From Octopus sinensis (Eukaryota): a stretch of 64,000 nt of DNA. Both the position numbers and the translations under genes were made by a program. The notes below the pieces were generated by a model. It worked only from the letters and a program-made list of their open reading frames with translations. It was not told where the DNA came from and made no database searches. Below are positions 3,345 through 39,517 of the stretch, piece after piece; positions within the stretch are counted from its first letter, which is position 1, and the number at the start of each line of letters is the position of its first letter. The stretch covers positions 1,054,001-1,118,000 of the forward strand of contig NC_043015.1 in assembly GCF_006345805.1 (NCBI RefSeq), read 5' to 3'.

Positions 3345-5175
3345 GTAAAGCTTTACTATAGCGTCGTATATTATCAACTGCTTTTTCAAGTACTTGGTGC
3401 ATTGTTGTAATATTATCTTATTTATATTCATATACATACATACATACATATACATATATATAGATATATATACATGAGAATTATATATAAGGGTATGTAA
3501 GAGATATCACCATACTTGAAATAGCAGTCGAAACCTGCATTATTCCCATGCTGCCATTTGATTTGATCGTTATTTAAACAAAGGTGCTTTCCTTATTTCT
3601 ATAGAAATACGTACATGCATACAAATATATACATGTATATATACATACATACATTATATATATATATATATATATATAATTTTATCAGAAAAGCACCATA
3701 TTTTAAAGGGCCGTATAAGTAAACACAAAACAACAAAAAAGAACTGAAGAAGCAAAACTAAAAATACACCACTTCGCGATACACCTGTTGATTCCTCATG
3801 TTTACGTGATTTGACATTCACTCTTCGATTTTCCACTGTTTTCCATTACACCTTTTAAAATTTCTATATGTATAATAAGACATATTTTATACGCATACAG
3901 ACAAGCACGCACACACAAACAGACATACATACATATAAACACACACATGCACATAAATATTTATATATACATATATTTTATGTATATATACGACTTTATT
4001 GTTTTTCTTATCTTTGCATTGTTGTTTTTTTTCATTTTTTGCAGGGATTGTTATTTTGATTGTTAATTTCTGGGAATTTTGAATGTCCCCGAAGCTGACT
4101 TGTGACTAGAGATAATTCTTCCCTTCCCGTCTCTTATGACGAACGAAGTCTACATCAGCAATACGCTACGAAAGCTGAGTGAATTATATATATATATATA
4201 TATTGCATGATAATTTACGACCGACTCCAAGAGTAAAGTATCTTAGACAGCTGTCTGTGCACATGCTATATTCATACAGTGATTCACTTTAGGTAACATG
4301 GCTGAAGCGACTAGCTAGTGTTTCTTATATACGTATATACTAAGACGACAGACACTCATCCGCGCACACTTGAGCATTTACTCACGCACGCAGTCATAGA
4401 CACACATCATACATACGCATGCATATATATGGCCGTAGCTCTGATCTGAAACTTAAAAACAAAAAAAAAATATATATATATATATACATATACATACATA
4501 TAGGCACACACTCACATATATACATATGAATACATATATATATATGTACATATATATATATACACACATAGATATACATATATATATAGAGAGATATGTA
4601 TATATTTATATATATATGTATTTATATATACATACACATATAAAAATATATACATCTCTCTCTATATATATATGTATGTATATCTATGTGTATATATATA
4701 TGTATATACAAGCGTGTGTATGTGCGCGCGCGAGCGTGTGTTTGCTTCCATAGATAGTTTCATAGATATAAATATGCATAAGCATGTGTTTGTGTACGTG
4801 ACACTTTATCTTAGGCTGAGAGTAGGTTTGGTGTGTGCATGTGCACAGATATACTTACACCCAGATATATGCGGAGCATGACTAGTAGCTTCTGCAGCAA
4901 TATACCTTTATGGAACATCTTAAATGACACACACATACACAATATTCACGTTGCTAGAAACACCGCAACGTAGAGAGGAATAAAACAAATCTCATATAAG
5001 CATAAAGCAGGTACATTTATGCAAGGGCATACTCCTTTGTCGACGGACAACGAGAGACACAAATATGACGTATCACTTAAAGTACATCGCCGACCGTACA
5101 GAATAGAAAAAAACTGGCACTAGACACACACACTCTCGTATACATATGAAGGATATACTCAAACATACATACATG

Positions 5176-5712
5176 CACAATAATTCTGATATAATAATTT
5201 GGGATAGAGAAGAGAAACTGTGCACAGTCGTGGAGATTAGCTACCCAGCAGGTGTTAACTTAAATGTGAAGATCAATGAAAAAGCGAGCACCTATGCTGC
5301 ACTATTGAGAAAGATGCGTTTACTCTATCGACACTACAATTTCAGGTTTATACCTGTAATTATTGGGGCCCTTGGATATGCAACACACTGGCTAAACTCC
5401 AGTCTTGAAAAATTAGGCTTCTCAAAACCAGAAAGGAGAAAGCTAATTCGAAGACTGCAGATCAAATCCAACACTGGATCTGTAAAAATCTATTAAGTTT
5501 CCAGATGTTTATCATTTAAATATATATATTAGCATGTCTAGATATGCAACTATATGCACAAGAATACATACATACAACATACAAATCTGTACATACATAC
5601 ATAAAAGCGAAAATACCCTGTTGTTGAAGGTGAAATTCCAATGACGGAACATTGGATCTAGATTAGAAACCGGTCCTTTCTATATTGGCCACAAATCTTG
5701 AAATAAACTTAA
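5176..5712 (+). mobile_element. 5'-truncated R4/Dong-like non-LTR retrotransposon: REL endonuclease C-terminus and 3' UTR
   Basis: ORF 5146-5496 has SDIIIWDREEKLCTVVEISYP...EKASTYAALL...FIPVIIGALG, a PD-(D/E)xK REL pattern. The 3' UTR matches 30250-30462. Confidence 0.85.
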
Positions 5713-6292: not shown

Positions 6293-6418
6293 TATACATA
6301 CATATACGTATATATATATAACGGGAAGCTTTATGAAAATAAACAAAAGACGAAGGCAGGTGGAAAACAAACGAACAATTGTATTAGTATGGCGCTCAGG
6401 AAATATAAATAAAACAAG

Positions 6419-6457
6419 TCTTTAACGTTTCGAGCCATACGCTCTTCAACAGAAAGA
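6419..6457 (-). ncRNA. Minimal type I hammerhead-like motif, copy 1 (PLE terminus)
   Basis: TCTTT-CTGTTGA-A-GAGC(GTATG)GCTC-GAAA-CG-TT-AAAGA: stem I, variant core, stem II, palindromic ACGT stem III. Confidence 0.7.
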
Positions 6458-6639
6458 TACACGAGAGAGAAAAACACAGAGAAGTAGGAGAGAAAAAAAA
6501 TGCGTGCAGTAGCTAACGAATCAACATGGCGATCTGATTTCGGCCAGAGGTCAAAGATCAAACATGAGACGCGAGAGCAAAATAAGGGGAGATAATAGGG
6601 TTGATAAACGGGTGAGGGACCAGCTAAAAGTGCGTGGAG

Positions 6640-6968
6640 GGGTCTGGATGTGTGTATGTATAGGGTTGGTGTATGTATTAGTATGTATAAGGGTGTGTGT
6701 GTGTGTGTGTGTGTGTGTATGAGAGAGTATTAGTGCGTAAGATTGGTCTGGACGTGCGTATGTATGGGGTTGGTGTATGTATTAGTATGTATTAGTATGT
6801 ATTAGTACGTATTGGTATGTATAGGTATGTGGTGTGTGTGTGTGAGAGAGTATAAGTGCGTATGCGGGGTCTGGACGTGTGTATGTATAGGGTGGTGTAA
6901 GTATTAGTATATACTAGTATGTATTAGTACGTATTAGTATGTATTAGTTGGTGTGTGTATTAGTATGG
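6640..6968. repeat. Three ~105-120 bp tandem units in the PLE 3' region
   Basis: GGTCTGGAYGTG...GGTGTATGTATTAGTATG recurs near 6640, 6746 and 6868, with (TATTAGTATG)n sub-repeats. Confidence 0.8.
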
Positions 6969-7007
6969 CACATCATGTGATGTGATGTGTAAAGTCATGT
7001 GGTGTAG

Positions 7008-7335
7008 TGAGGAGAAGAGGGGAAGGGGGAGAAGAAAGGGGGGAGGGGGAGAAGAGGAGGAGAAGAGGGGGAGAAGAAGAGGGGGAGGAGAAGGGGGAAG
7101 AGGAGAGGAGGGGGGAGAGGAAGGGGAGGAGGGGGATGAAGGAGGAAGAGGGAGGGGGGGGAGAGAGGGAGTGAGGGAGCAGAGGGAAGAGGGAGGGGAA
7201 GAGCGAGCGAGGGAAAGAGGGAAGCAGGGAAGGGGAGTAGGGGTGAAAGGATGAAGGACTGAAGAAGTAGGGGTGGGGGAGAAAGGATAGGTGAGGAGGG
7301 GGGAGAGGGGGTGGGTTTAGATGAGGAGGGGGGAG
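7008..7335 (+). repeat. Polypurine G/A-rich tract
   Basis: About 330 nt of almost pure G/A with many GGG+ runs. Confidence 0.9.
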
Positions 7336-7374
7336 CGTTGAGACCAAATGGCGTATAAGAGCGAAGAAAGAAGA

Positions 7375-8293
7375 TTAATTCTGTTCACGGCGCAAACGGG
7401 AATCCGGATGGCCTCTGTGTAAGGACAAACGAACACAGATAGGTGTTGCAAGGAGTGACCGGTGGAGCGGAAATGGCGTGAGACCGGTTGTGTCGTTCGC
7501 AAGGTGGATGTCACGAAGGTGTTCCGCGAACCGGTCAGCCAAGCGGCGTCCCGTTTGTCCGATGTACAAGGAATTGCAGAGAGAGCAAGAGATGCAATAG
7601 ATAATATTGCTGGAGGTGCAGGTGAAGGAGTGGATGATGGATAGGGTCGATGGTGGGTGCTAGTGAGGCGGGTGGTGTTGGAGAGGTAAGGGCAAGTGCG
7701 GCAACGTGGGCGGGAGCAGGGGAACGAGCCGGGTTGGGAGGTAGGGTCAGGGAAGGAGCTATGGACCAAAAGGTCTCGAAGTTGTGGGCTCGTTTGAAAG
7801 AGGGGAGGGGTCGGTTAGGGAAGAGGTGTGAAGTGGACGGGTCGGACTGGAGATGACGGAAAGCTCGAAGAATGGTGCGTTGGAGACGTAGGGTCGTGGG
7901 GTGGTAAGTGAGGGGAAAAGGGAGGCGGGAGACTACAGGGCGGGTTCGGGGAGAGAGAGCAGATACACGGTCCACGGACCGTGCTCTGGCAAGGGCGGTG
8001 TGGATAGTGGTGAGGGGGTATCCACGTAGGGTGAAGTGGTGAGCCATACGTTGAGACTGAGTCTCAAAGTCATGGTCGTCACTACAGAGCCTACGTAGAC
8101 GGAGGAATTGGGAATAGGGGATGGAAAGCTTGGTGTGTTCTGGGTGGGAGGAGGAAGAGAAGTTGAGGTATGAGTGTGAGTCTGTGTGTTTGTAGTGAAT
8201 GGAGGTGGTAAGAGTGGAGTGAAGAATGCTAACGAAATGTCGAGGAAGGAGACAGAGGTGTTGGAGATAGTGGAAGTGAAGTGGAGGGCTGGT
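7375..8293 (-). pseudogene. Disrupted PLE RT C-terminus/GIY-YIG endonuclease coding region
   Basis: Motifs are split among ORFs 7933-8505, 7535-8359, 7317-7769 and 7375-7569, indicating several frameshifts. Confidence 0.88.
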
Positions 8294-8628: not shown

Positions 8629-8962
<334 letters not shown>

Positions 8963-21113: not shown

Positions 21114-23033
21114 TCATACCGGGAACATGTGGACTCTGTGCAACACAGAACTACTTACCCGTGAAAAACTCGAAAGCCTGAACATAAATATAAATTATTG
21201 AAGCGAATAGCTAAACCGATTTGAACATGTAAACATTTAAAGTATAATGCATGCTTAAAAAATATACAAGAATAACAAAGGATTTCCACATCCAATAACT
21301 TTTATAAGAAGACCTTGTAAAAATAATTTATAAATTACAAATATTTGGAAAAAGTATGAAAGGATATATGAATGCATAAAAATATCACGTATATGTATAC
21401 AATTTATAAGACATAATGTGTAATTATAAATTAGAATAATTTGGTACACATTATAGTATTGTATTATGAAAAGAAATTATAAAAATCTTTTTAATTAATA
21501 GAAGCTATACAAATGTATAGGAAGGTGTATAGATAAAAAAAATTAATAATATAAAATATAAAAAATATAGAACATAAAATTTTATATATTTGTTTGCGAA
21601 TGATATAAATGGTATAACAGAAATAAAAAAAAAACATAAGAATATATCAAGATAAAATAAAATGAAATAAGAATTATTTTATAGATTATGATATAAATTA
21701 TAAATTATATTTGTATATTGAAAGTAGTCTTAGATATATTATTAATATAATACCCTATTAAAAATTAGATCATGTATATCAAATACTTATTGAAAAAAAT
21801 AATAAATTAAGATAAAGATACCTTTGGAAAAGGGGTTTATAAAATAATTCCAGAATATATCAAGGACACTGATCTATGTAGGGCAATAACAGTTACTGGG
21901 AGCTATACCTTATAAATAGGAGAGGGGGAAGATTTCGTAATTCGTTGCAATTTTATATATTATACAAACTATAATGGAACGGCTTAATATGTAATATAAT
22001 ACAGAACGGCTAAATATGTAATATAATTATTGAAACATTGCAGATTAATGTAATAAAGGTTCATTAGAAAACAATATTACATATATTTCGAGAAAATAGA
22101 GGATATGCTATGAATAATATGACTCCCCGTATCATAGCATGATATACTTATCATTACTTCTTTCTAAAGTATTTGAAGGTACGGGTAATCCTATGGGCAC
22201 ATGATACTCTATATATGAATATTTCATATATCTACATACAACATATTTCACATCCATATCGGTTATTTGTATATGGCAGAGCTCTACCCAAGATGTCCCA
22301 TTTTAGGCTATATTCACTATTACTATCCTTGAGTCTCAAGACAATCATTGATAATGCGGTACCAATGACGAAAAATGGTTATTCAATCGATTTTTTGTTT
22401 TCGTATTCACAGAAATGTTTAATATCTGTCCTTATTGTACATTTATATATGACATTTTCAGCTAAACACTGACCTAATGACTGATAACGGGATCCTTCTC
22501 TACAATTGCAACTGTGGATATTATAATTAGCATTACTTACTCTATCATTAACATTTATAGTGATGTCATACGAGGTATTACTGATATTCGTAGAAATATT
22601 GTCAATTGTTACGGACACACGTACATCATTGTTACTCATTTACATTCTGATCTCCTGGTGTGGAGTGGTGCGAACTATACCGAACTGGCAAGGTGCTTCA
22701 GTCTAAGTACCAAATTCAACTAAATGTTAATTATATTCATATAAAATATATGCGTATATCGAGCAGGCTGTCAGCTAACGGCTATTCACAGGCGCAATCC
22801 CACTGCTACACCACATAGGATATTTTTACTAGCTACGTTTCCATCATGCACCGACACGAGCCTCACTAGACAACCTGGTCCTGATGAGTTCACACTCCAG
22901 CACCATATTGATGCATAGTTTAACACAGACACCCAATCGACACATAAGTCAGTCTACCAGGAGGTTCATAATCAAACCGGCCACGCAATCAATGCTTAGT
23001 ATCCCTGGATTACAGGAATGCACCACAATAACC

Positions 23034-23066
<33 letters not shown>

Positions 23067-32208: not shown

Positions 32209-32420
32209 GTGACCTCGTGAGTGCCGCTGGCGATTTTTTCCCTCTGTCTTCCCTTCTCGGGATCTTTCCTTCTCCTATGTTTCCGACGAAGAGCTCCGCT
32301 CGAAACGTTAAACCCTCATTCTTGCCTTCTTTCCTGAGCGTCCAATAATACTTTATTTGTTCCACGTCCTCGCGTTGTTGTGTTTTTTTTTTGTGTTTTC
32401 TTGTTTGGATTAACTTTATT
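32209..32420 (+). mobile_element. Divergent PLE terminal-type unit with hammerhead-like motif, copy 5
   Basis: 32279-32313 GTTT-CCGACGA-A-GAGC(TCC)GCTC-GAAA-CG-TT-AAAC, followed by TTCCTGAGCG...AATAC as in the other copies; (TA)n both sides. Confidence 0.75.
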
Positions 32421-35964: not shown

Positions 35965-37620
35965 TCCTTTTCTTTGCCACCAGGGTGAAAGGTGATGGGA
36001 ACAATACGAAGACATAAAATCACTCGAAGAGAGCACCTCCCTCACCACCCTCATTTGCCATTTCGATTGAATCTTGAAAAGGTCTATGAGGGCTTTATCA
36101 AAGATGTCTTCATTCTTCTCGGCGTAGTACACCAGACAACCTCTTTCGCCACAACCTCCAGGCAAAGGAAAACTGCCTCGCCTGCCCGATTAAAGGAGGC
36201 GGTGGGGAAAGCATCACTATAGACTCGGATGACAGACAGATCCCTACCACAAGTGACATCATGCTGTTCCACATAATTCCACAAGTCAGCAAATGCTCGG
36301 CCACTGAACAAGTGTATGCAGAACAGGTTCGCCGCTTTGCGCGCACCTCGGAAAATCCGTCTGACAGCTCATTCGTGCCTGTAGAGTTTATCGCGAAACG
36401 TTACCCCCCAGTAGCACTGCCAAAAGAAATGTATCTGGAAATTATCCCTAATAATCCCAGACCCAAATGACCTCTGGAACAAACTAACCAGTTTGTCTTG
36501 GTCAACAACAAGATTCTCTATTAGGATGTCGTTGCATTTTCCGCCGCTAATCCTCTATAAAGATCTGAAGTGGAAATTCCATCGATCCTATTTCCTGATT
36601 GGTAGAGGACGTTGTGCGCCTGACGACATTCTTGGTGCCAGACGTCCTGTCTTGGTTTGTCCTTCACCCAGGATTGCAGAAATACGTGCCTCACTGAGGA
36701 GGCCCATGCATGTTCACCATCTAGTAATCGTTGCAAGTAGCGCAACCTTAGCGCTTGTCTGAGCATCGAAATCCACGGCATGCCTAAGCTGTTACACAGA
36801 GAGATCTGGCAGTGAACTGACCACGTGATCATTAGAACGTGTCCCTTCCGCAAGAACATGGGCGGCTGATATTTTTTTTCTTTTTGCAGGCATCCGACAC
36901 TATGACGGTGACGTCGTCCGTCTATGCAAACACTAAACTTTTGAGTCCGATTTCGGATTTTCGAAAGGGATGCCCCTCAAGTGTTCCAGCTTACGCAGCA
37001 GAGCTCGAGAACCATCACGTACAGAAGAGGTGAAAGCGGACCGAGTTTGCGATGCTAAACGGTTCCGATAGATGGCTATTTACTTTGACCACCGAGAAGT
37101 CGCCACTGTGTATTGCAGCAACTCAGTCCCTGAAAACGTGTCCGAAACCAGCTGATTTAAGGACGACTTCCAAGTAGCGATGGTTGACTCTATTGAATGC
37201 TTTCGATTGATCCAAATTTATCAGGGCTCCATTGAAGCCAGCTTTCGTCCAAGCCTTCTCTATGATGTATTGCATAAAGTGGAGGTTGTTGTGGATAGAC
37301 CCGGTCAGGATTGCTTCCGCTACTAAAATACTAACGGCCGTCGGCAACCTTTTAGCTAACACGTTGTCTAAAAATCTTGAAACCTGTCTTTAGCAGAGTT
37401 ATGGTCCAAAAGTTCCTTACTATCTCTTCATTGTGTCATCCTTCTTCAGTAATGTCACCACACCCCGACTAACAACACTAGGAATTCTCCCGTTCTGTTG
37501 CCAGTTTCGGTCAACATCTGCCAAGAGATCGCCAAACAAATCTCGCATGTATACATACAGAGACCATCTAACCCACGTGATTTCTGAGTTTTCCAGTCGC
37601 TCATCCTCTCACGTATTTCA
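35964..37620 (-). mobile_element. L1/Tx1-like LINE, decayed ORF2 (RT and C-terminal knuckle)
   Basis: LINLDQSKAFNRVNHRYLEVVLKSAGFG; FA*TDDVT (YADD-equivalent) near 36910; PRCAQSGEPVLHTLVQW knuckle remnant; 3' end runs into (TTA)n. Confidence 0.85.
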
Positions 37621-37962: not shown

Positions 37963-38154
37963 AGATCGTTTGCTCGTACACACATTTTTTTCTCTACTTG
38001 TTTCTCTCCTTGCTTTTTTTCTGTGTATCTATCTGTCGAAGAGCGTAGGCTCTAAACGTAAAAGACTTTTTCTATTCCTGAGTGCTATACTAATACATTT
38101 CTTTGTTTGTACTCCACCTGCCTTCGTCTTTTGTTTATTTTAAACTTTCCCTTT
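37963..38154 (+). mobile_element. Solo PLE terminal unit with hammerhead-like motif, copy 3
   Basis: Colinear with the PLE terminus. 38028-38065 TCTAT-CTGTCGA-A-GAGC(GTAG)GCTC-TAAACGTA-AAAGA; (TA)n both sides. Confidence 0.85.
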
Positions 38155-39337: not shown

Positions 39338-39517
39338 GGAGTTTACGAAAAAAACAAAACACGAAGACAGGTGGTGCACACAAAAAAAAACAGATATATA
39401 GTATAACGCTCGGGAGTAGAAAAGTCCTTTACGTTTCGAGCCTGCGGTCTTCTACAGAAAGGAACATAGAAAAAACAAGGGGAGAAAAAAATGTCTGTAG
39501 TGGCTAACGATCTGTCA
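39335..39517 (-). mobile_element. Solo PLE terminal unit with hammerhead-like motif, copy 4
   Basis: 39425-39463 reverse complement TCCTTT-CTGTAGA-AGACCGCAGGCTC-GAAACGT-AAAGGA; 3' end at (TA)n. Confidence 0.8.

Follow-up and report, generated by a model that had tools for sequence, protein, structure and literature searches.

Introduction

Penelope-like elements (PLEs) carry minimal hammerhead ribozymes that cut weakly and as dimers (PMC4209133; also the available text of PMC6765202), and it is debated whether these motifs serve to cut, to circularise RNA, to bind protein or do nothing at all. The motif we describe here comes from a 64,000-nucleotide window of Octopus sinensis DNA (the whole stretch analysed). 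It is like the PLE minimal hammerheads in its location in a pseudo-LTR (pLTR), the extra base after A9, the G10.1-C11.1 pair, the palindrome (15.2-16.2) that replaces stem III, the short stem I and the predominance of solo truncated copies (PMC4209133), and its stem II and GAAACGUH segment are nearly identical to those of the Acropora Neptune entry in the same paper. All core positions are those expected of a PLE minimal type-I hammerhead except A6, which is U in the family, while the extra nucleotide, the pair and the palindromic stem III remnant are all present. Hammerheads are held to be invariant at A6, among other positions, and unlike here A6 stands in 56 of 56 motifs in Fig S3 of PMC4209133, a count biased by a search descriptor that was built on the conserved core. 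The core variant described in that work is U3-A8, whereas here U6 is fixed in the family that has the most matches of the motif shape.

A natural substitution at position 6 is known from the Bcep176 phage hammerhead, in which A6 is replaced by C (PMC3088659 and PMC7151607, in the parts available). That case is a C in a single phage motif with slow but measurable cleavage, favoured by Mn2+ (PMC7151607), whereas ours is a U in a dimer-type motif with tens of thousands of copies, known from sequence alone. For the CUGA turn of a type III hammerhead, the available text of PMC9901934 reports low activity for every mutant, whether single or double, except a C3G/G8C swap. A natural A6U hammerhead was not found in the literature we searched, which holds A6C only; the alignments of Lunse, Weinberg and Breaker (RNA Biol 14:1499), which lay outside that search, may hold A6U. 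The PLE variants of those authors, as related in the available part of PMC6765202, are like ours in their reduced stem III, dimer cleavage and PLE context. The string A6U itself occurs once in the accessible text of a twister paper (PMC11662667).

The Anolis Poseidon hammerhead (Frangieh et al. 2024, PMC11167929, in the part available) is likewise a PLE minimal motif upstream of an internal reverse-transcription start. It cuts only with the element's protein, it is dispensable for insertion in vitro, the main insertion template is uncut RNA, and in the text available no RNA ends were seen at the cut site. Poseidon has the canonical A6, its motif overlaps the ORF start and protein-assisted cutting has been shown, whereas the motif described here is located some 0.6 kb 3' of the endonuclease domain and a long way 5' of the ORF that follows. 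Non-LTR retrozymes (PMC7229834; bioRxiv 10.64898/2026.07.22.740005, both in part) also form short head-to-tail arrays with one pLTR-derived hammerhead per unit. The arrays of the present family differ from them in carrying the minimal motif with U6 and in having their own junctions; because no junction recurs among 10, they are not an amplifying family. The U6 motif is a genuine core variant that runs through its whole lineage; it belongs to a known kind of ribozyme, shows evidence of continued constraint and has putative activity.

The motif and its host element

On the minus strand, positions 6419-6457 read UCUUU CUGUUGA A GAGC GUAUG GCUC GAAA CG U U AAAGA, with UCUUU and AAAGA as the strands of stem I (Table 1). 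Loop II carries a private 1-nt insertion at 6437 that is absent from most or all of the sequencing-contig depth, and sequencing contigs (runs X2, X8 and X19; coded organisms B and E) cross the core without a substituted letter, an observation that speaks to presence only. A preliminary description had listed four copies with the cores CTGTTGA, CTGTCGA, CTGTCGA and CTGTAGA, and a stem III consisting of the palindrome ACGU, as in dimer-type minimal hammerheads; all four copies and the palindrome can be read in the window. The copy at 8641-8678 is likely a separate older insertion, because it is only 87% identical to the first; its other subfamily and this identity rule it out as the inverted 5' end of the same insertion. 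An Rfam search of the window returned no match to the hammerhead families, either among the matches listed (150 of 326) or in a targeted check.

Table 1. Coordinates of the hammerhead motifs and their host element (window positions; loci for the arrays)
Feature	Position	Strand	Basis or remark
5'-truncated Penelope-like (Neptune-like) insertion	6320..8292	-	between (TA)n tracts
Remnant of a frameshifted ORF, with the C-terminal part of the RT, a C-x4-C-x2-C linker and a GIY-YIG endonuclease	7330..8292	-	
Minimal hammerhead of type I with A6U in its core; belongs to the youngest subfamily (U7, H17=U)	6419..6457	-	sequence
Core C3 U4 G5 U6 U7 G8 A9	6446..6452	-	U6 = 6449, N7 = 6448; sequence
Extra A following A9	6445	-	sequence
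Stem II GAGC/GCUC plus loop	6432..6444	-	
G12 A13 A14, then palindrome A15.1-C-G-U16.1 (6428-6425), H17 (6424)	6424..6431	-	sequence
Predicted cut	between 6424 and 6423	-	numbering per PMC7151607 and PMC4209133, available parts
Second U6 hammerhead copy, CTGTCGA	8641..8678	+	C7 subfamily, decayed, H17=G
Third U6 copy, CTGTCGA (C7)	38028..38065	+	G12 lost by decay
Fourth U6 copy, CTGTAGA (A7)	39425..39462	-	sequence
Fifth hammerhead, sister family, A6 (CCGACGA)	32278..32314	+	3-nt loop II; stem I GUUU/AAAC
Retrozyme-like arrays, 2-5 U6 hammerheads	L403, L412, L414, L427, L434, L442, L454, L467, L470, L476		

Elsewhere in the window, a stretch at 36371-36411 (+) shows the CTGTAGA ... GAAACGTT spacing without the family stems and is probably there by chance. 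A metazoan SRP (7SL) RNA match at 22745-23036 (-), at 79 bits against an Rfam cut-off of 70, is a gene or a derived copy. The open frame at 5107-5496 (+), which we take to resemble the C-terminal restriction-like endonuclease of an R2/HERO-type retrotransposon, gave no match in a Pfam search.

The hammerhead sits in the 3' pLTR of a young element whose 3' end lies about 105-110 nt beyond the predicted cut. Among 3,285 candidates, 39 other copies are 96-99% identical to its ORF remnant. Pfam found nothing in four fragments from the window; the matches came from the intact genomic copy L164, a 926-aa open frame with RVT_1 at E 1e-7 and GIY-YIG at E 0.007 (below Pfam's cut-off), in which DKG and YIDD motifs are present. 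Three loci (L191, L193, L194) have a pLTR-ORF-pLTR layout, with two motifs each, 4.5 kb apart around the ORF. The host had been proposed to be a Penelope-like element, and the RT, the GIY-YIG domain and the pLTR layout agree with this: a single ORF with RT followed by GIY-YIG, partial-tandem pLTRs and 5' truncation are the marks of an endonuclease-bearing PLE. Neptune elements have a C-x2-5-C-x2-C linker and target (TA)n, the linker finger being found in Nematis as well (PMC8557442, available part). In our element the linker CSRPRCRTC precedes the endonuclease both in L164 and in the window, and (TA)n lies on both sides. Its protein relatives carry the hammerhead that PMC4209133 gives for Acropora Neptune. 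The element also shares 55% identity with a protein recorded under the name of a bamboo shark, which is about as close as the A6-bearing metagenome relatives. We read the host as a Penelope-like element that has been active recently and that bears features of Neptune.

Within the 3' UTR of the element, GTATGTATTA units make up an internal direct repeat at 6732-6958, whose identity is 79% over about 230 nt; the 3' UTR also has a purine tract of some length at 7009-7330. A block, CCYGAGCG, lies 15-25 nt past the cut site (6380-6410 (-)) and is conserved in U6 and A6 families; it might serve as a protein-binding site or as a pairing partner for the GCUC arm of stem II.

Position 6 in the family and its relatives

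We searched a 2.72-Gb animal genome assembly with motif patterns. With positions 4-7 left free, the pattern found 13,610 exact matches and its reversed control found 0, and with stem II free the U6 pattern CTGTNGA-N11-17-GAAACGT found 22,622 against 449, so the motif is not a product of chance. A6 motifs with stem II free gave 8,621 matches (442 in the control). Among the 13,610 exact family copies, CUG is followed by a letter other than U in 431, and a hand count of the 100 listed among these 431 gave 69 C, 22 A and 9 G, a spread such as decay would be expected to leave. So that the motif itself played no part in the choice, 90 copies were taken by their downstream flank alone; 76 retained the motif region, with U6 in 74, and the remaining 2 are truncated through the core. 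These counts sustain the earlier proposal that U6 is a family trait rather than decay in a single copy, and where a genome-wide A6 consensus would have spoken against that proposal, the family consensus is U6. N7 had been described as varying freely. It does differ between copies, but along subfamily lines: each subfamily keeps one letter at N7, and the changes separate one subfamily from another. The 3' hammerhead of the youngest ORF-linked copies has U7 and U17 in 30/30, which excludes per-copy hypermutation at N7 or H17.

A further 90 copies were chosen by the old-type flank, of which 80 were kept, with 66 U, 7 C and 7 A at position 6. Two of the seven A6 copies are truncated, three belong to an older group (3-nt loop II, C17) and two are basal, with C7 (L335, L393). 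Within the old U6 group, a separate subfamily with C6 or A6 is not supported: the 100 copies listed out of 219 gave 85 U, 11 C and 4 A, a slightly high share of C, and C6 is scattered on the tree.

Older relatives, sister families and metagenome relatives all point to A6 as the ancestral state. Three loci with old shared flanks (L322, L343, L354) have A6, C7, C17 and a 3-nt loop II, and the sister families (about 8,600 motif matches) carry A6. Eighty metagenome loci fetched as protein relatives, their best segments mostly 45-65% identical, held 14 motif matches, all A6, where five shuffles gave 2; seven of the 14 match the Acropora Neptune hammerhead (PMC4209133 Fig S3). A6 thus appears to have changed to U once in this Neptune-like lineage and then to have been kept, which makes U6 derived. 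A covariation check had been suggested earlier, and across related families the stems do covary: in 12 hand-picked family representatives, 87.5% of the cells in stems I and II are paired and 21 cells changed on both sides, a number reached by 0/500 shuffles, inflated by relatedness and far lower in slid controls. Inside the U6 lineage the stems are invariant, so covariation is uninformative there. U4C cores (CCGACGA) recur in a sister subfamily and in 4/7 related metagenome motifs (32278-32314 (+); L026, L059; L199, L225, L237, L249), so position 4 also varies at the family level.

One might suppose that the loss of A6 was compensated, for instance by Mn2+, by the element's protein or by a roughly simultaneous lengthening of the 3-nt loop II to GUAG, and that the motif is about as active as its A6 sisters. 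The change in loop length does fall near A6U on the subfamily ladder described below, Mn2+ rescues A6C (PMC7151607, available part), and the U6 family has more motif matches than all A6 motifs together (22,622 vs 8,621). Yet in the basal copies L335 and L393 A6 stands beside a loop of 4 nt, and the lengthening of the loop may therefore precede A6U; the CUGA-turn mutants in the available text of PMC9901934 come without second-site rescue; and no footprint of cutting was found at the predicted site in the genomic copies considered below. We regard such compensation as improbable.

Constraint after the change at position 6

Copies were ordered into a subfamily ladder by flank-only diagnostics and a flank-only tree (109 columns, with few strong branches and the branching order at the base not settled), within-group divergence going from about 0.10 to 0.03. 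Across seven subfamily majorities 0/34 motif columns changed, as against 43/106 ungapped flank columns (Fisher p = 7e-7); this comparison included motif-selected copies, and flank-only picks give the same majorities. In all, 34 of the 36 motif columns never changed along the ladder. The other two are N7 and H17, which are the free positions of the hammerhead consensus (PMC7151607, in the part available). On the flank-only tree N7 ran U>C>G>A>C>U and H17 ran A>U>A>U, in both cases probably with C earlier; just 214 copies have G or C at H17, and no subfamily has a majority with G17.

Between an old and a young copy, fourfold sites differ by 0.58 and second positions by 0.16 (99 sites, one good comparison), and we read the fourfold value to mean that a neutral site on the master line changed about 0.4 times. 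N7 and H17 changed more often than 0.4-0.6 per site predicts, and at least four changes at N7 would have P about 0.001-0.003, uncorrected for number of sites or CpG. A neutral site would remain unchanged with probability 0.55-0.67, so U6 by itself gives no power. Because 34 of 36 columns are fixed and the changes fall only at the hammerhead-free positions N7 and H17, the fold probably stayed under selection after A6U, a claim that covers the fold and not U6 itself. Other flank blocks are also invariant across subfamilies, so the constraint is not unique to the motif.

These patterns bear on the idea that U6 is neutral or even harmful and hitch-hiked in a single master lineage, the region being conserved for some DNA-level reason such as a pLTR promoter. 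One master lineage accounts for the fixation of any single letter, promoters are located in pLTRs (PMC6765202, available text), and half of the array junctions described below begin at what may be a start site. But variation just at N7 and H17 is not what one would expect of a DNA element, and neither are the paired changes that distinguish stems I and II of one family from those of another; we consider this explanation very improbable. The pattern of constraint speaks for a catalytic fold that was kept.

Looking for traces of cutting

Genomic copies might be expected to record cleavage as ends or junctions at the cut site. Of 98 pLTR-5'UTR junction rows (from 100 listed of 160 genome matches, a few being the same locus twice), 1 has its start no more than 5 nt from the cut site, and in 89 the sequence continues through an intact motif. 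Flank-anchored 5' ends show no cut-site excess, with 5/153 at -2 to +2 compared with 5-7 per 10-nt bin nearby, in a count whose length rule left out sixty 417-nt old-group loci. Short head-to-tail arrays were found at 10/95 loci, with units of 260-610 nt, one motif per unit and at least three motifs in 7/10. Every array repeats its own 5'UTR-to-pLTR junction in each unit and, where it is seen, has a normal 3' end in (TA)n. None of the 10 has its junction at the cut site; in five the junction starts 81-88 nt upstream, a possible start site. The arrays fit reverse transcription round an RNA circle, repeated template jumps or DNA-level expansion, and they are no demonstration of cleavage. The 5' end of one of them (L470, minus strand, about 755) falls exactly at the predicted cut site beside a (TA)n tract, which could supply the same letters by microhomology.

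Predicted folding energies give the motif no support (z -0.8 to +1.5) and fail to separate U6 from A6 motifs, and the dimer hammerhead fold has an energy above that of two folded monomers in 11/11 cases. U6 does allow a predicted helix of U4-G5-U6(-U7) with the ACG palindrome, at a probability of 0.98 in U7 copies.

Because a genomic footprint of cutting was not found, the observations are compatible with a slow ribozyme and also with a dead fold that is bound by protein. On the latter explanation the motif no longer cuts, and its shape and sequence are kept for binding by the element's protein or a host factor, in packaging or in the choice of where reverse transcription starts. It would account for the missing footprint in junctions, 5' ends and arrays, for the invariance of loop II, which is free for catalysis, and for the alternative helix just described. 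It would also sit well with the dispensability of cutting for insertion in vitro (PMC11167929, available part) and with Naiads, which in the available text of PMC8557442 are reported to thrive without canonical hammerheads. However, the sole changed positions are the catalytically free N7 and H17, several times each and never to a majority G17, and the A6 sister motifs likewise have competing monomer folds, so the alternative helix is not special to U6. We take a dead fold seriously, although we think it unlikely. The absent cut-site footprint and the published A6 mutant data speak for slow or no cutting.

A proposed slow ribozyme and its meaning

What the sequences show is the element, its tandem pLTR-ORF-pLTR arrangement with some 4.5 kb between the motifs, a U6 that is derived, and a motif invariant at every position but N7 and H17. 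From these we lean, with modest confidence, towards a Neptune-like PLE hammerhead in which A6 changed to U once and was kept, and which is a slow, dimer-type, probably protein-assisted self-cleaving RNA whose fold is under selection. Two motifs on one transcript would pair through ACGU/ACGU and cut only rarely. Reverse transcription would start about 110 nt 3' of the cut site, so that every motif-bearing copy must come from RNA that was uncut or re-joined there; with such templates fast cutting would be costly, and a weak cutter would be cheap and might be favoured. If cutting or joining happened now and then, selection on the core would be maintained.

Going one step further, it is tempting to speculate that A6U is an adaptive throttle that successful Penelope lineages have reached independently, in this case starting from an A6 ancestor of which the genome still holds copies. 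The ribozyme would have to cut rarely, as each cut would part the site where reverse transcription begins from the remaining template, and the repeated swaps at N7 and H17, faster than synonymous sites, would record a continuing tuning of a slow ribozyme. We offer this extension tentatively and hold it to be doubtful.

For the family as a whole, searches based on CUGANGA miss this U6 group, although its matches outnumber all A6 matches of the same shape in the genome (22,622 vs 8,621). The lineage is also a natural test series, with an A6 ancestor, A6 sisters and a ladder of U6 subfamilies that differ within the motif only at N7 and H17, and its young copy with an open reading frame suits protein-assisted assays of what a Penelope-like hammerhead does.
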